This document shows positions 3,506-24,811 of a DNA stretch of 64,000 nt, one piece after another. A program made the translations under genes and the position numbers. The notes beneath the pieces are model-generated. The model was not told the origin of the DNA. It saw nothing but the letters and a program-made list of their open reading frames with translations, and made no database searches. Numbering within the stretch: position 1 is the first letter of the stretch; each line of letters begins with the position of its first letter. This DNA is from Neophaeotheca triangularis (taxonomy: Eukaryota): assembly GCA_054600435.1 (NCBI GenBank), contig BAAIJX010000047.1, forward strand, positions 62,001 to 126,000, in the 5' to 3' direction.

Positions 3506-5695
3506 ATGGGTTGGAACAACGACATGAGATGGTCTCGTCGACTGCCAATACATATATGGCCCCGACCAAGAGTGTGCCAAACCCCAGCAGAGAATGCAAT
3601 CGGTGCTCACATTGGAAATGGTTTCTATGCCGGTGACCAAGCCGATCGTTTCTTCTGGCCCCTATACGAAGACAAGATGTATGTTCGCTTTGGTAATGAG
3701 CTTTGCTTCTTTTGCGAGATCCATCTGATCTACGAAGATGGCAGCCGTCAGACTATCATCTCTGATCCGGACTGGAAGGTCAGGAGTAGCGCCACCCTAC
3801 TCGCCAACATTTATGGATCGGAGACGCATGATAGGAGGTTGTTGCCAGCCGGCTGGGACACACCCTCCTTCGACGATAGCCAATGGCCCACAGCGAAGCC
3901 GCTGACAGGGCCAAAAGGCGAACTCAGATATCAATCACAGCCTCCGATTGTGGCACACCAGACATTCGAGCCCGTCGCTGTGAACACTATCAAACCGGGA
4001 GTAGTGGTCTACGACCTTGGACAAAACGCCTCTACCATGGTTAAAATCTCTGTGTCAGGTGCAGCCGGATCCGAGGTCATCATTCGTCCGATGGAGACTG
4101 TCGACGAGAACGGCGCTGTGGTAATGCCAGATCCCCTCTTCAAGGAATTCGAGACGCATGTCTATAACAAGTTCATACTCGCCGGCACCGGAGAGGCAGA
4201 AGAATGGCAGCCCGACTTCAGCTTCACAAGCGCACGATACATCCAGATCGAAGGCGTTGCGATGCCTTTGGACCAGAACAGCTCTTCCCTCCCCGTAGTG
4301 CACTCGGCCGTGGGACAACATGTCTCTTCAGCATCCCGCCGCCTGGGCAAGGTGAGCACCGACAAAGAAGACGTTAATGCTCTGATCAACGCCTGCTTCT
4401 GGACGTACTCTTCCAACCTGCTGAGCTGGCACACCGACTGTCCGCAGATTGAAAAGTTCCCCTGGCTCGAAGTGACTCATCTTCTTTTCCCGTCCTCCCA
4501 ATACGTTTTCGACATCGAAGCACTTCACTCCAAGATTTTGCGTGATATTGTAGACGCCCAGGAGAAGAGCGGCTTCGTTCCCAATATGTCGCCTGAGATG
4601 AGGTACATGTGCGGACCAATGCGAGATACCATCACCTGGGGATGTGCCATCTGCTTCATTCCGGAAATGCTGAAGCGCTACTACGGCTCCACGCAAATGA
4701 TAGCCGCTTGCTACAAAGCAGCCAAAGCCTACATCGACCACATGCGCACCAAGGAACGAAAAGGCGGCCTGATCGAACACGGTCTGGGAGACTGGGGCCG
4801 GGATATCGCCTTTGGCAATCACCAAACCAACATCGAAAGCGCCGTCTACCACAAATGCCTCAAAAATTGCGAGATGATGGCAGAGGAGCTCGGCTACGAA
4901 AACGAAGCCCAAGACTTCAGAGCCACCGCGGAGAAAGTCTTCGACCTATACAACAAAATCCTCCTCAAGCCCCGCGATGAAAGCGCCGGCCACCCAACAG
5001 CCTTTTACACCTCCCTCGACGAGCCCGAAAAATTGGACAAAACCGCCATCAACCAAGCCGTAGCGCTGCAATTCGGCATGGTCCCGGAATCGCACATCGA
5101 AGACATTCAGCAGACCTTCCTCGCCGACGTCGCCGACTGCCGTATCCGCGCCGGCGAAATCGGCCTCCCGTACCTCTTCGCGACACTCGCGGACCTCCGG
5201 CGCCCGGACATTGTTCTCGCCATGGCGCGGCAGGAAGAGCACCCGAGCTACATGCGCTTCCTGCGACGGGGCGAGACGACGCTGCTCGAGTTCTGGCAGG
5301 ACGAGTGCCGCTCCAAGTGCCACGACATGTTGGGCACGATTTACGAGTGGTTCTACCGCGCGGTGCTGGGGTTGAAATTGACGAGTGATGCTTACAAGAC
5401 TTTTGAAGTGTTTCCGCCGTATGAGAGTGAGTTTGGCCGCGTCGAGGGTAGTGTCGAGTCGCCTTTTGGCGAGATTGCGGTTGAGTTTGAGCGCCGGGGG
5501 GAGGGGGAGAGTGTCGTCACTGTCACGGTTCCCATGAGCACGACGTGCACGCTGAAGGTGCCGAAGGGTGCGAAGGTGGAGGTTTCAAGGTATGGCCAGG
5601 TGACAAGTGCGCCGCAGGGTAAGGCTGGATCGCTGGAGTAGCGGCACGGGCAGTATTCTGTGCAGATTCGCCAAGGGGGTTCGATTTTCTCCTAG
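3506..5695 (+). pseudogene. GH78 alpha-L-rhamnosidase, apparently 5'-truncated with a probable premature TAG at 5639-5641
   Basis: GH78 motifs GNGFY, YDLGQN, TDCPQIEK.PW, GLGDW, TTLLEFW and HDMLG. Recognisable sequence starts only at about 3587 (ENAIGAHIGNG), about 130 bp from the divergent transporter ATG. In-frame RHGQYSVQI follows the TAG. Confidence 0.75.
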
Positions 5696-20024: not shown

Positions 20025-20633
20025 GCTTTAAGGTTGGCCCACTCAAGGTGCGAAGGTGCGGTGTCTTGGGATGGGAGTGGTGGTTTGGAATTGGGTGAGT
20101 GAGTGGGCTGGGTTTGGACCGGAGGGTTGGAGGGTCGGTAAGGATGGAAGGGGAGTCTAGTGTGGGATTGTGTATTTTTTTCAAACCCTGTGTAGAATAC
20201 GTTTTTGACCCTTTTCGACAGTCATGAAGAAGGGAGGCTTGACGTGACATGCGGTGATGCATCACCACTTTCAGCCAGGATTGGATTCGTACCTTTCCCG
20301 CAGCAGCCCTTGCAGCATCGTCAGAGTTGATTGATTGGTAAGATTCGTCTTCTAAAGCCACCTCCTATTCCGAGTCATGGTTCTATTCACAAGTCCAATT
20401 TGACTACTACTGTCACAACGATGCTTGGCGCTGTAGCTCCAAGACCGCAGCTCAAAGTTCCGCGGCATGCCTTCCCCATCGAGCGTCTGATATCAGACTT
20501 CATCACCAGCAACGCGGTACCTCACTCGATCCAACAATGATCGCTCTCCAACTAGCACTCTCGTGTCTAGCAGCCTACGGCGCGTACTTGAGGTGAGCTG
20601 CCACTCGCACCAAACAAAAACCACGCGCCCTCC

Positions 20634-21939
20634 ATGCCCTCTCGCAATGCCCTCCTCCTCCATCACGCTCTGAAGCCGCACTACTCCCTCGCCCACTCCC
20701 CAATCTGCCGCGCATCTGTCGCTGGAACTCTCAACAGTTACATGTCGCCCACGCTCTGGAAGACGGGCGCTCTGAGCACGTCGATGCGTTCCTTGTCCTC
20801 CGCCAGCCAGCCCTCCTTCACCTACCGCATAGCAGCCGCTTCGGCGGGGAAAAAGACGCCCGCTCGCCCCCCAAAAGCGGGTAGAGATTTCTGGAACTAC
20901 AGCTCTGTGCACGAAAACCCTACGCCGCCTTATTTGCGCTCGAGCAAGAAGGACTCCGGCGAGGATGCTTTCTTCGCGACGACAGTAGGTGCGAGCAAGA
21001 ATCACGTCGCTTTTGGTCTAGCGGACGGGGTGGGTGGATGGCAGGATTCGGGTGTGGATCCTTCGGATTTTAGTCACGGGTTGTGTGGTTTGATGGCGGG
21101 GACTGCGCAGTTACATGAGGGGTTGGCTGAGGGGAAGAATGTGAGGCCCAGGGAGTTGATGCAGACGGCTTATGATGCTGTGTTGGGGAATCCCAGGATT
21201 TTGGCAGGAGGGAGCACGGCTACGGTGGGTGTGTTGGGGGAGAAGGGGGGTTTGGAAGCTGCCAAGTAGGTGCGCCCGCAAAAATGTTGATGGAGAGCAG
21301 GTTGTACTGACATGGGCCTACAGTTTGGGCGACTCCGGCTTCCTGATCATCGGACCTGGCAAGGTGACTTATCGCAGCGAAGCACAGACACATGCCTTCA
21401 ACACGCCTTACCAACTCTCCAAAGTGCCAGCCAAGATGCAAGCGCAACACGCCATCTTCGGGGGCTCCGCACACTTTAGCGAAACGCCTAAACAAGCTGA
21501 TGTAACGACCCACCAACTCCGCCACGGCGACATCGTCCTCTTTGCAACAGACGGAGTATGGGACAACTTATCTGCGCAAGACACTCTCGGCGTTGTTACG
21601 AAAGTGATGGAAGAGAACGGATACTGGTTCAAGAGCCACAATTTCGCGGGCGCCGAGACTATGCTGAATACTTCTATGATCAACAATATCGCCGGGACTC
21701 TGTCGAAGAAGGGGGAAGAGAGCTTTCTTCCCAGCCAAGTCGCTGCCGCTGTTGCACGAGAAGCTAAGTTGGCTGGCCTGGACCCGAGGCGCGAGGGGCC
21801 TTTTGCAAAGGAGGTGAAGAGGAATTTCCCTGGTGAAGCTTGGGAGGGTGGCAAGCCGGATGATATTGCTGTGGTTGTTTGTGTTGCCGTTGAAGATGGG
21901 CAGGGTGAGTCGGAGAAGCCGATTAAAGCCAAGCTTTGA
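20634..21939 (+). CDS. PTC7: PP2C-family phosphatase, Ptc7-like, probably mitochondrial
   Basis: Motifs GEDAFF, GLADGVGGW, GGSTA, ANLGDSGF (across intron 21266-21323), QTHAFNTPYQL, ATDGVWDNL and GGKPDDI. Confidence 0.92.
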
Positions 21940-22536
21940 GGCATCAAGCTAGAAGGATCTTCGAATCGAATGAACCGCAAGGCTGGTGTGGCCTTGGGCA
22001 TGTTGCGGCGTGCGGACCGTTCTCTGCGGAAGGGGAACAAGGTGTCGGCTCTAAGCTACACATCCTTCTGTGAGCGTGGGTCACGCCCAGCAAGTTCAAG
22101 GCGCGTTGATGATCACGGGTGCGAACCTGACACTTGAGTTAGGAAAGCAGAAACGGCTCGCTCTGTAGGGAGACGGCTGAATGGATAGAACGCAGCGGCG
22201 CAGCGGCTGGGGAGGTTGGACACGGGTTCGGACTTGGCTCTTGGAGATGTCGGAACAGAGCCATGAGAAAGTCAAGGCTAGGTAGCCGAGGGATATACTC
22301 GAGAAAAGGGGTGATTCCCTCTGAAACAACAGTAGAGGCAGGAGCAAAAGGCAAAAAATCAGCTTCGCAATCAACACAGTACCCACGCCCAGTAAACCCC
22401 AGTCCTCACCCAGTCTTAACCAGCTACCAACTTACCAACCCCCTTTCTCCCGTCCCATGAATTTGATTTCAAATAATATATTCAACACCACCACTCGGAA
22501 ACCCATCATCAAACCACTCTTCAGGGTACACGGTCG

Positions 22537-22597
22537 GTACGTGCTTAGACTCCACAATCCCACCGAGTCCACACCGGACACTAACAAATCTCTGAAG
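22537..22597 (+). other. Spliceosomal-type intron 1 of tRNA-Ile (61 nt, acceptor stem between nt 5 and 6)
   Basis: 5' GTACGT, branch site ACTAAC at 22580-22585, 3' AAG at 22595-22597. Confidence 0.82.
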
Positions 22598-22610
22598 GTT
22601 AGCTCAGTTG

Positions 22611-22679
22611 GTTCGTCGTCCGCTCATCGCATAATTGCTCCATCACTTTCGGACTGTGATTTTCTAACAATTGCCAAAG
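22611..22679 (+). other. Spliceosomal-type intron 2 of tRNA-Ile (69 nt, D-loop between G18 and G19)
   Basis: 5' GTTCGT, branch site CTAAC at 22664-22668, 3' AAG at 22677-22679. Confidence 0.87.
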
Positions 22680-22738
22680 GTTAGAGCGTGGTGCTAATAA
22701 CGCCAAGGTCGCGAGTTCGACCCTCGTACTGACCATTG

Positions 22739-22751
22739 TTTTTATGTTTTT
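22739..22751 (+). terminator. RNA polymerase III terminator-like oligo-T tracts
   Basis: TTTTTATGTTTTT begins 4 nt after the tRNA discriminator base. Confidence 0.7.
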
Positions 22752-23164
22752 GCTTGCTTGCGGACGGATTGGTTTTGGTTTTGGTTTTGGTTCGCGTTTT
22801 GTGAGGGGCATGAGGTTTTGTGTTTCGTTTGGTCTTGTGGGCTGCGTTGTGCGGGGGGGGGGTTTTTTTTTTTGTTCTGGCAGAGTGCGTTAGGGGCAAG
22901 TCTCGGATTTAGCCGAGAAGGAGAGTCATGCATGGGGTTCGCGCGAATGGTGCTTTGTGTCGCCAGTGCGGATTGAGGTTGTAATTTGCGTTGTCGTGGA
23001 AGATGAAGCTGGTCTTGAACGTTGATCACTATTTATAAGAGCTAATACCTAGAAAGGGTACCGGCAAGAAATCATCTGAATTTTGTACCGGTATCAGATA
23101 TCCCAAGTCCGACAGACGATGCCAGCCTTGACTAATGCCTTTGCATACACCCGGCACTGCTCAA

Positions 23165-24811
23165 CTATTCGCCGCTCGGAGCACCCTCAGCAGCAGAAAC
23201 GTCATTCCCATACCGCAACGTCAACGTGTGCAGTTTGCTCTTGAAAGGGTCAGAGTCAAGGTAAGCGCCCTTCAACCAGCGCTCCTTGCCAGCGTCGGCG
23301 ACCTCGAAAGCCTTTCTCGCGTGCAGCACTCGCCTGTTGTCGAAAATGACGCATTCGCCGGGCTTCATCATTCTCTCGTAGATGGCTTCCGGTCTTTGGA
23401 TCAGGCGGTTGAAAGCCACTGCAGCACGATGCCAGTTCTCCACATACTGATCGCCGATACCGAGGGGTGCTTGGAAAGGCGGAGACCAGAAGACGTTGTG
23501 GTTAATGTGTCCTGCTTGGGCATCGTGCATTTTATCCATGAGGAATGCTCTGCGGGGCTGTGTTAGGCTATGGTTTGTAGTCAATGGCTCCAAAACGTGC
23601 CTGCGTTGGGTGTACAGGTTAGAGTTCGGATGGTCGTAATGGAAAGCGATCGGCGTTCTTTGGAGATGACCAAATGCTTCTGGGTCTTCTTTGGCTAGCA
23701 GTTGCACTGCTTTCTGGCTGTCCGTGAACAGGCTGGCGCCTCCTGCGCTGGACGATCGAATGCAGTGCAGTAACTGCAGGTGGGGCGGCTGCTCCATATA
23801 CAGCAGATCCATGTGGAAACCGAGGTCTTGCGAGGTGTATGCGACGTTCTTGGCGTCGGGAACCGATCTCACGTCCCAAGTTCGACCGTAGAAGGTGGTT
23901 TTGAGCGGTCCGATCCGTTCAGCGATACGCTCCACACTCTTTTCGTCTTCCGGAACTCCCGTCAGGTATGCGAAACCGTATTTGTGCAAGTGACGGACCG
24001 CTCTGAAGAGCACGCGATCGTCGGCTGAGTACGCATCGTATGCAATATCGGCTACCGATCGCCGGAGTTTGGCAGCATCCCAAGTGGAAGCAGGGCTGAG
24101 TCTAGGCGCACTGCGTTTGACTGATTTGTTCGCATCAAGCAACTGCAAGGCCTCTGAGCCAAGAAACGTAGTGTGATCGTCTCCAAACCCGGCGACGTCG
24201 TTCTCCCAACGAATGGTTACGCCTTCTGAACTCGCTTGCACGTCTTTGGCCTTGATCTCCGCAGGAATATCAAAGCTTGAGATGAGCTTTTGACGAGTTG
24301 ATTGATCAAGGCAACGCTCACAGTTGCACGAGTCTCGGATTTTGATCGGCGAGAAGTCTTGACTGCGTCCATTGATGTCCAGGGTCAGGGCGTTTTTGAT
24401 CCGAAGACTTCGACTATGATCACGAGAGGTGTTCAGATCTATCGCATTTGAATCGAGAGGTGCTGCTTCACGCCTAGTTGCGAAATCAGGCTCGCGACTG
24501 CTGGGTACCTAGTCCTTGTCGATGAGTGGAAACGTCGAGAGCTTGCACAGTTGGGGATACAAACGTACGTGCTGAGTTTGAGAGACTGTTGCATACTTAC
24601 GCTCTCCTTTCGGAGTAGAAGAAGCGAGTCGGTGAGTAGTGACAAAGTTGGCTCTCTGCTGTTGTGATGCAGCAGTCACATGTTTGCCTCGATTCGTCGT
24701 GAGCGAGGCAACACGTTGACCTCGACAACCTCCCGTAATGTTGATCGATGCGAGATTTGCGCCGTAACCACCAGAATGCTTCAAGATTCTGACAATGTTT
24801 CGTTGCGCCAT
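23165..24811 (-). CDS. Gamma-butyrobetaine dioxygenase-like Fe(II)/2OG dioxygenase (TauD/BBOX family), probably mitochondrial
   Basis: N-terminal IRDSCNCERCLDQSTRQK Zn-binding motif, NVAYT..LGFHMDLLY (HxD), FDNRRVLHAR and RWLKGAYLD. A phase-0 intron at 24509-24568 (GTACGT...TAG) joins the presequence exon. Confidence 0.88.

Follow-up and report, generated by a model that had tools for sequence, protein, structure and literature searches.

Can a nuclear tRNA gene be interrupted by introns of the spliceosomal type, and could such a gene still supply a working tRNA? The question is raised by a locus in the window, the 64-kb stretch of DNA analysed here, where the letters of a tRNA-Ile(AAU) lie in three pieces separated by two inserts (Table 1). 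The initial annotation of this DNA had assigned coordinates and letters to the exons and inserts, and had claimed that cutting at the GT and AG ends leaves a 74-nt tRNA with four stems and the invariant bases. The former match the sequence exactly, and the latter is borne out both by ARAGORN and by our reading by eye. When the three exons are joined by script, the resulting 74 nt are called by ARAGORN as tRNA-Ile(aat) over positions 1-74, with all four stems paired throughout. In this cloverleaf exon 1 finds its partner in 22729-22733, G-U pairs account for 3 of the 21 stem pairs, and U8, A14, G18, G19, A21, U33, G53, T54, T55, C56, A58 and C61 are all present by eye; the exons of the split gene carry no damage in any of the 21 stem pairs or at any invariant base. 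CCA is absent from the encoded 3' end. The joined tRNA is identical at 63 of 74 positions to a eukaryote-type tRNA-Ile(aat) in a metagenome locus (L039), which itself scores 59.9 bits against the Rfam tRNA model, and comparison of the two sequences by eye reveals two-sided, pair-preserving differences in the T stem and the anticodon stem. Together, these observations support the conclusion that the locus is a tRNA-Ile(AAU) gene split between tRNA nucleotides 5 and 6 and between 18 and 19 by two inserts with full spliceosomal-type signals.

Table 1. Features of the interrupted tRNA-Ile(AAU) locus, in window coordinates
Feature	Position	Strand	Details
AT-rich TATA-like element AAATAATATATT	22471-22482	+	50-61 nt upstream of exon 1; C/A-rich leader after
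tRNA-Ile(AAU) gene, interrupted	22532-22735	+	pieces of 5 nt, 13 nt and 56 nt; two inserts
Exon 1, GGTCG	22532-22536	+	tRNA nt 1-5, acceptor stem 5' strand; read in sequence
Intron 1	22537-22597	+	61 nt; acceptor stem, between tRNA nt 5 and 6; donor GTACGT, acceptor AAG
Intron 1 branch site ACTAAC	22580-22585	+	branch A 22584, 13 nt from intron end
Exon 2, 13-nt micro-exon	22598-22610	+	tRNA nt 6-18, contains whole A box; read in sequence, ARAGORN
A box TAGCTCAGTTG, in exon 2	22600-22610	+	11/11 against TRGYNNARNNG (consensus as given in PMC7954030)
Intron 2	22611-22679	+	69 nt; D loop, between G18 and G19; donor GTTCGT, acceptor AAG
Intron 2 branch site TCTAAC	22663-22668	+	branch A 22667, 12 nt from intron end
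Exon 3	22680-22735	+	56 nt; tRNA nt 19-73, last base is discriminator A; sequence, ARAGORN, Rfam
Anticodon AAT, in exon 3	22696-22698	+
B box AGTTCGACCCT, in exon 3	22714-22724	+	9/11 against RGTTCRANTCC (consensus as given in PMC7954030)
Two T5 runs	22739-22743, 22747-22751	+	begin 4 nt past tRNA end; Pol III terminator form

As had been thought probable, a gene in this state escapes standard finders applied to genomic DNA. ARAGORN reports no tRNA in the unspliced stretch 22500-22760 and no gene in the whole 64-kb window, and Rfam at its gathering score has no match anywhere in the window. With the Rfam threshold relaxed, the locus yields a partial tRNA match at 22673-22727, whose 23.9 bits fall short of the cut-off of 29, and no other tRNA fragments are found in the window; an FMN-riboswitch match from the same relaxed search of the whole window (19.7 bits against a cut-off of 66.2) was taken as chance. 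The control consisted of 412 deletions of single intron-like segments and 75 of pairs, made in silico across the whole window and on both strands. ARAGORN found tRNAs after 5 of these 487 deletions, all of them at the split tRNA-Ile locus, and the 74-nt form arose solely from the pair 22537-22597 and 22611-22679. Two other calls at the locus were set aside as artefacts with poor splice sites, namely a 143-nt 'tRNA-Ala(cgc)' with a 51-nt intron, obtained in ARAGORN's intron mode when intron 1 alone was removed, and a 72-nt tRNA-Ile with a makeshift acceptor stem, obtained when only 22618-22679 was removed. A chance origin of the split tRNA pattern is excluded. The locus is known from a single assembly, which leaves room for the wider suspicion of a chance resemblance or an assembly artefact, and to this we give hardly any credence: the missing pieces are present as exact stretches of 13 nt and 5 nt, in the right order and with complete splice signals alongside, every tRNA recovered in the removal control sits here, and a chimeric assembly would be unable to produce two clean introns.

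The signals within the inserts point to the spliceosome. Both donors conform to the pattern GTNNGT, with G at +5, which occurs at 478 of 127,800 window positions, and in both inserts the terminal AG is the first AG past the branch site; the 3' motif, defined as CTAAC 9-25 nt before the first following AG, occurs at 31 of 127,800 window positions. The joint frequency of donor and 3' motif is 9e-7 (about 1e-6) per defined insert. On the basis of donor, branch site and length, the assignment of both inserts as U2-type GT-AG spliceosomal introns is supported, with their removal as lariats being putative. Because GGT and GGTT repeats stand at the insert ends, each insert can be drawn in 4 or 5 equivalent registers, and the insertion hexamer, G^GTTAG, is identical for both. 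Multiple and ectopic tRNA introns are known in red algae and archaea (described in PMC3978253), and the inserts might by analogy be ectopic tRNA introns cut by the tRNA splicing endonuclease and sealed by a ligase, as in Cyanidioschyzon merolae and archaea, with the GT-AG ends being incidental. This we regard as very improbable. The inserts lie at 5/6 and 18/19, not at 37/38, and their donor, branch and first-AG signals are complete, with the chance of about 1e-6 each noted above. The junctions form no bulge-helix-bulge (BHB) either: intron 1 scores at best 7/10, near the mode of its random background, where 35% reach 7 or more, and intron 2 scores 6/10, at the mode of its own, where 67% reach 6 or more; each background comprised 20,000 random pairs spaced like the insert. 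An endonuclease-type tRNA intron, whether canonical or ectopic, was accordingly rejected, there being neither position 37/38 nor a BHB at the junctions.

How far the two introns resemble the mRNA introns of the window was assessed against seven introns, six of them frame-restoring candidates and one of 138 nt mapped from protein P0001. The initial annotation had described size, donors and branch spacing as matching; length and branch spacing do, whereas the donors do so only in part. The introns are 61 and 69 nt long, compared with 56-70 nt in the six candidate mRNA introns (138 nt in the intron mapped from P0001), and their branch-to-end spacings of 13 and 12 nt compare with 11-17 nt in the six candidates. 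Both, however, have C at donor +4, which none of the seven comparison introns has, and both end in the acceptor AAG, which is likewise seen in none of the seven, all of them ending in CAG or TAG. The two introns show no particular kinship to one another. When they were aligned, 101 of 500 shuffles scored as high, and the likeness of their 3' ends ranks 19th among 36 pairs; a common origin of the two finds no support in either measure. Their predicted folds are ordinary (z-scores of -0.14 for intron 1 and +0.44 for intron 2, from 200 shuffles each), and no second copy of either was found in the 64-kb window, where the best other matches are 11-13 nt. Since the introns are unrelated and not hairpin-rich, they are not two fresh copies of one element.

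The promoter elements bear directly on how such a gene could be expressed. Type 2 Pol III promoters set the start of transcription roughly 10-20 bp upstream of the A box; in the split gene, an A-box-directed Pol III start would fall at about 22580-22590, within intron 1, and would give an RNA without exon 1, a point that the initial annotation had passed over. For the gene to work, transcription must therefore begin upstream of exon 1, and we assume that a new upstream promoter serves the split gene, with the TATA-like element as a candidate upstream start site for Pol II or for a TATA-directed polymerase. Intron 2 widens the spacing between the A box and the B box and contains a run of four T (22660-22663). 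Pol III termination occurs at T runs (PMC7954030, in the text available), and with both boxes intact and the T5 terminators kept, the locus looks like a former Pol III gene. The TATA-like element with its C/A-rich leader, the position of a same-strand gene (20592-21939) that ends 590 nt upstream of the split gene, and the complete splice signals would also suit a former tRNA that has been exonised, its pieces now being exons in a non-coding or untranslated RNA that Pol II makes and that is spliced but releases no tRNA. On the other side of the split gene lies a dioxygenase gene, at 23165-24811. We consider the exonised reading unlikely. RNase P and RNase Z have a natural substrate in any spliced RNA with a perfect cloverleaf fold, and we know of no reason for the exons of an exonised transcript to retain every tRNA invariant. 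None of the five open frames tested across the locus matches Pfam at E up to 0.1, which counts against this reading as well as against a protein-coding one, which was rejected.

The explanation that we prefer, with a confidence that stops just short of even, is that this is a functional, spliceosome-dependent nuclear tRNA-Ile(AAU) gene of a Dothideomycete close to Neophaeotheca triangularis, which has gained two U2-type GT-AG introns at G^GTTAG. Pol II would most likely transcribe the locus, starting upstream of exon 1; alternatively, the TATA-like element at 22471-22482 would position a polymerase there. Both introns, being short, would then be recognised by intron definition and excised by the spliceosome, with lariats formed at A22584 and A22667, and the cloverleaf could fold only once both introns are out. 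The ends would be trimmed by RNase P and RNase Z, CCA would be added, and A34 would become inosine by deamination, as it does in the tRNA-Ile(AAU) of other eukaryotes. We infer transcription, splicing, processing and translational use of the split tRNA from the sequence. A more far-reaching form of this proposal, which we put forward tentatively and as something short of probable, is that an essential tRNA-Ile(AAU) has exchanged Pol III and maturation of the endonuclease type for transcription from an upstream promoter, probably by Pol II, with obligatory spliceosomal removal of two introns and inclusion of a 13-nt micro-exon. Two separate gains in a 74-nt gene with intact exons would be easier to explain under continued selection. 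Precedents for the proposed route exist in the U6 introns of fungi and the Pol II-made tRNA-Sec discussed below, and the host's class, with its described introner-like elements and repeated intron gains, also speaks for the functional reading. Intron-free tRNA-Ile(AAU) copies elsewhere in the genome may, for their part, meet all demand. The absence of defects at about 57 constrained positions translates into an estimated neutral divergence of roughly under 7%; with the bound as loose as this, a recent pseudogene is compatible with the intact exons.

It is quite possible, though in our judgement less likely than a functional gene, that the locus is a disabled copy among several tRNA-Ile(AAU) genes, hit by recent intron gain in a lineage where introns are actively acquired and yielding no working tRNA, with splicing of stray transcripts being conceivable; the exons would then be flawless merely on account of how young the gains are. 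The introns could have arrived by reverse splicing into a transcript that was then reverse-transcribed and recombined, or as introner-like elements. tRNA genes are normally multi-copy, and the loss of one among multiple copies would be cheap. The A-box-directed start within intron 1 and the consequent loss of exon 1, as deduced from the general promoter geometry, would fit a dead gene; the shared hexamer G^GTTAG at both targets suggests a site-specific insertion process rather than selection, and the splice sites are atypical in their AAG acceptor and donor +4 C. The host, moreover, belongs to the Dothideomycetes, a class from which introner-like elements are described, as are genes that have recently gained introns more than once (PMC4457414, the available text of which, like that of PMC11146597, cites van der Burgt 2012 on introner-like elements). 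The resemblance extends to the supply of new spliceosomal introns in the same fungal class and to the multiple hits taken by some genes (PMC4457414); the difference is that introner-like elements exist as numerous almost identical copies in genes that are unrelated, whereas the tRNA introns are single-copy in the 64-kb window and of ordinary length and fold. Against a disabled copy stands the finding that two mutually unrelated introns entered a 74-nt gene and yet left its stem pairs and invariants undamaged, as a second neutral hit in so small a dead target before any point mutation appears improbable. Introner-like elements, as van der Burgt reportedly described them in 2012, are longer than regular introns and fold unusually stably; at 61 and 69 nt, with z-scores of -0.14 and +0.44, the tRNA introns have neither feature. 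Neither intron, then, has the stable fold of young introner-like elements or a second copy in the 64-kb window.

Relatives of the split gene were also sought in metagenomes. A permissive pattern made of exon 2 and the donor matched at least 119 loci, consisting of SINE-like repeats, a repeat family, ordinary tRNAs with variant D loops and chance matches. BLAST of the locus, of exon 3 and of both introns against the matches listed returned only a 16-18-nt seed and ordinary tRNAs in L039, and no orthologous split locus was found among those matches. A stricter pattern with both splice sites had one match in genome contigs, which lies inside a Dehalococcoidia MAG and was rejected as chance, and none in viral contigs.

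If the favored reading of a functional gene is true, the locus represents a new route of tRNA biogenesis that breaks the textbook divide between spliceosomal and tRNA introns. Current reviews, PMC12530127 (in its available text) among them, treat the nuclear intron classes as unrelated and with separate substrates, and in the available portion of a broad 2020 tRNA review the spliceosome is named only in connection with U6 (PMC7954030). The supply of a major isoleucine decoder would depend on splicing capacity, and probably also on how Pol II is regulated. Because both introns occupy an identical site, G^GTTAG, the gene would also be a natural test case for the entry of introns into highly structured, non-Pol II RNAs. 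The split gene was missed by ARAGORN and Rfam, and the tRNA gene sets of such fungi may therefore be incomplete; Neophaeothecales or other Dothideomycetes may commonly have such hidden split-tRNA genes, with tRNA finders silently under-counting them. Should the locus instead prove to be a dead copy, it would still document cleanly how introns are gained by genes that do not code for proteins, in a class from which introner-like elements are known.

Spliceosomal introns in tRNA genes had been thought to be undescribed, and we likewise found no report of them in the literature searched, in which coverage of subscription journals is thin. In an experiment reportedly published by Koehrer, Vogel and Domdey in EMBO J in 1990, an engineered yeast tRNA gene with a pre-mRNA intron was spliced by the spliceosome; the construct would share with our proposal a pre-tRNA, there made by Pol III, with an mRNA-type intron as spliceosome substrate, and would differ from the split gene in being artificial and in having a single intron at the natural intron position.

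Among natural tRNA genes, those of archaea, Cyanidioschyzon merolae and nucleomorphs include split and permuted tRNAs and ectopic or multiple BHB introns (PMC3978253, in the text available). Like the split tRNA-Ile, these disrupted tRNAs are hidden from standard finders and have introns outside 37/38, including in the D arm and acceptor stem; unlike it, their introns are BHB-defined and cut by the tRNA endonuclease, whereas the split tRNA-Ile has no BHB and its signals are spliceosomal. That a functional tRNA can come from a Pol II transcript is illustrated by the tRNA-Sec of Trypanosoma brucei, which is made by Pol II (as described in PMC2943599 and PMC7954030), in a different organism, by polycistronic transcription and with no introns. 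Ascomycete rRNA genes contain spliceosomal introns (Bhattacharya et al. 2000, as cited in PMC5855946) and thus provide GT-AG introns in a Pezizomycotina gene for an abundant non-coding RNA that Pol II does not transcribe, with the differences that the polymerase is Pol I and the RNA another one.

The snRNA genes of fungi offer a further parallel, for which we draw on the available text of PMC5855946. Fungal U6 genes carry up to four mRNA-type introns, introns are also present in U1, U2 and U5, and in the Pol III-transcribed U6 gene of S. pombe the intron is removed by the spliceosome (PMC5855946). Reverse splicing followed by reverse transcription is the proposed origin of these introns (PMC5855946). 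A tRNA has no place in the spliceosome, so proximity to the catalytic centre cannot explain the gain, and splicing of the tRNA is here predicted; furthermore, the start of the S. pombe U6 gene lies upstream of its intron, whereas the A box of the split tRNA would set the start inside intron 1. Nevertheless, the two cases have in common a small, structured non-coding RNA gene of Pol III type with internal promoter elements and one to several short introns, which in the snRNA genes have canonical splice sites at the 5' and 3' ends and a canonical branch site but no conservation beyond these (PMC5855946).

The tRNA-Ile(AAU) gene is divided into three exons by two inserts, whose letters and coordinates, re-read from the sequence with the borders cut by script, had been given correctly in the initial annotation. 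When the exons are joined, ARAGORN reports a tRNA-Ile(aat) over positions 1-74 of the 74-nt product, with an acceptor stem of 7 bp, a D stem of 4 bp and anticodon and T stems of 5 bp each. Three G-U pairs occur among the stems and all of the usual invariant bases are present, in agreement with the 74-nt, four-stem tRNA first proposed. The 3' part of the tRNA lacks precisely the 13-nt and 5-nt pieces, which lie in the correct order, and the spliced form is identical at 63 of 74 positions to a eukaryote-type tRNA-Ile(aat) in metagenome locus L039, which scores 59.9 bits on the Rfam tRNA model. As had been anticipated for standard tRNA finders, the unspliced DNA is invisible to these tools: ARAGORN reports 0 genes in the whole window and none in 22500-22760, Rfam at gathering score returns no matches across the window, and at a relaxed threshold the sole tRNA match is partial (22673-22727; 23.9 bits against a cut-off of 29).

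Features of the split tRNA-Ile(AAU) locus (window numbering)
Feature	Position	Strand	Description
TATA-like element	22471-22482	+	putative promoter element; C/A-rich leader also upstream
Exon 1	22532-22536	+	5 nt
Intron 1	22537-22597	+	61 nt; between tRNA nt 5 and 6, acceptor stem
Exon 2	22598-22610	+	13 nt
A box	22600-22610	+	intact, wholly inside exon 2
Intron 2	22611-22679	+	69 nt; between G18 and G19, D loop
Exon 3	22680-22735	+	56 nt
B box	22714-22724	+	intact, in exon 3

Both inserts begin with GTNCGT, carry CTAAC with the branch A 13 nt (intron 1) or 12 nt (intron 2) from the end, and terminate at the first AG after the branch. GTNNGT occurs at 478 and the 3' motif (CTAAC plus first AG) at 31 of 127,800 positions in the window, a joint frequency of 9e-7 per defined insert; the repeats GGT and GGTT at the two ends of the inserts allow 4 or 5 equivalent registers per insert, which raises the chance to a few in a million apiece. 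In an in silico control, every loosely intron-like segment on either strand of the whole window was excised; of the 412 single and 75 paired removals, 5 led ARAGORN to call a tRNA, each time at this locus, and the 74-nt form arose only from the paired removal of 22537-22597 and 22611-22679. That the inserts are introns of the tRNA splicing endonuclease, or that the split gene is an artefact, is very improbable even with the two taken jointly. The bulge-helix-bulge motif by which that enzyme acts at ectopic positions, scored out of 10 pairs, reached at best 7/10 in intron 1 and 6/10 in intron 2, scores attained by 35% and 67%, respectively, of 20,000 randomly placed pairs of positions with equal spacing; the motif is thus absent from both, and we reject endonuclease introns.

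By sequence, both inserts are ordinary-looking spliceosomal introns. The initial annotation held that they match the mRNA introns of the window, and this stands for length and branch spacing, which fall within the ranges (56-70 nt and 11-17 nt) of six frame-restoring candidate mRNA introns. For the donors it holds only in part: with a 138-nt intron mapped using the protein P0001 added (n=7), C at donor +4 is found in both tRNA introns vs 0/7 comparison introns, and the AAG acceptor is likewise in both vs 0/7. The two introns are, judged from their sequences, dissimilar to each other (global alignment 5.5 against 2.8 +/- 2.8 for shuffles, as high in 101/500; similarity of the 3' ends ranked 19th of 36 pairs). 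Neither has a further copy within the 64-kb window, and neither folds unusually well (z-scores -0.14 and +0.44 for introns 1 and 2), on which grounds young introner copies seem unlikely.

Both introns interrupt an identical hexamer, G^GTTAG (22536/22537 and 22610/22611), and GGTTAG occurs in the tRNA only at these two sites. G|GTTAG resembles a weak 5' splice site. GTTAG is also the exact complement of the branch motif CTAAC, so each branch site can pair with the start of the following exon, over 6 bp (TCTAAC/GTTAGA) for intron 2 and 5 bp for intron 1.

Immediately downstream are two runs of five T; the consensus sequences of the A and B boxes and the role of T runs are described in PMC7954030. 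Judged by these sequence elements, the locus was seemingly once an ordinary Pol III gene. Promoters of this type set the transcription start roughly 10-20 bp 5' of the A box, so that here it is expected inside intron 1, at about 22580-22590; the resulting RNA would lack exon 1 and be unable to give the tRNA, and for the gene to work transcription must begin upstream of 22532. This would fit a disabled gene copy, a reading that we consider distinctly possible, as would the atypical AAG acceptors and C at donor +4, the shared hexamer, suggestive of site-specific insertion, and the usual multi-copy nature of tRNA genes; undamaged exons limit neutral divergence only to roughly <7% by our own estimate. 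A functional, spliceosome-dependent tRNA gene is nonetheless the reading to which we tentatively lean, at a little short of even confidence, since two mutually unrelated introns lie in a 74-nt gene and yet the stem pairs and invariant bases are undamaged, the splice signals are complete, and both introns keep the first-AG rule.

The gene sits between two convergent genes: 590 nt separate it from the end, at 21939, of the upstream gene on its own strand, and ~430 nt from the 3' end of a dioxygenase gene on the opposite strand (23165-24811 region). Five open frames tested across the locus matched no Pfam family, and it seems improbable that the tRNA pieces are spliced within a host RNA from which no tRNA is released. 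A protein named for Neophaeotheca triangularis shares 99% identity with the dioxygenase ORF, and the next relatives (Cercospora, Dothistroma, Zymoseptoria, Hortaea) share <=53%, which places the host among the Dothideomycetes, in the order Neophaeothecales; it was in this class that introner-like elements, and genes that had recently gained several introns, were described (PMC4457414). The only intron of the dioxygenase gene (24463-24600, - strand, 138 nt, mapped with P0001) has its frame-keeping end at a CAG 11 nt past an earlier TAG, so either this genome does not always follow the first-AG rule, or the branch site or gene model is a different one. Downstream of the tRNA, the spacer that leads to the 3' end of this gene contains a short microsatellite, (GGTTTT)n, and ten G immediately followed by eleven T (22770-22793 and 22853-22873). 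Elsewhere, a weak FMN-riboswitch-like match at 3751-3881 (-; E 4.2; 19.7 bits, the gathering score being 66.2) is most likely chance.

No orthologous locus was found among the metagenome matches listed, for which the pattern (exon 2 plus donor) was too loose; a stricter pattern gave 1 match in the prokaryote collection, taken as chance, and 0 in the viral collection. Many listed contigs (L008, L009, L011, L020, L024, L026, L031, L033, L038, L041 and others) share an element, with the match at ~1501 in most, in which a conserved block precedes the exon-2 13-mer and AT-rich, TAGG-rich sequence follows. Rfam found no tRNA in the three such loci tested (L009, L033, L011), and the element resembles a dispersed repeat from a eukaryote present in the samples. 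In locus L039 (1-820, -), eukaryote-type tRNA genes are tightly clustered; ARAGORN lists three tRNA-Ile(aat) copies among them, and in one the anticodon-arm region is duplicated internally.

The initial annotation knew of no spliceosomal intron in a tRNA gene, and the literature searched gave no report of one either; PMC12530127 (2025) presents the intron classes as separate, which is the standard view. If splicing and use were confirmed, the result would be highly surprising. A yeast pre-tRNA engineered with a pre-mRNA intron was reportedly spliced by the spliceosome in 1990. Both halves of the expression model have precedents: S. pombe U6 RNA is made by Pol III and spliced by the spliceosome, fungal U6 genes having up to four such introns (PMC5855946), and trypanosome tRNA-Sec is made by Pol II (PMC2943599, PMC7954030). 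The non-coding RNA genes with spliceosomal introns listed in the U6 review are U1, U2, U5, U6 and rRNA, with tRNA not included (PMC5855946). Introns of the mRNA type are already known from small non-coding RNA genes, and here the host RNA is a tRNA.
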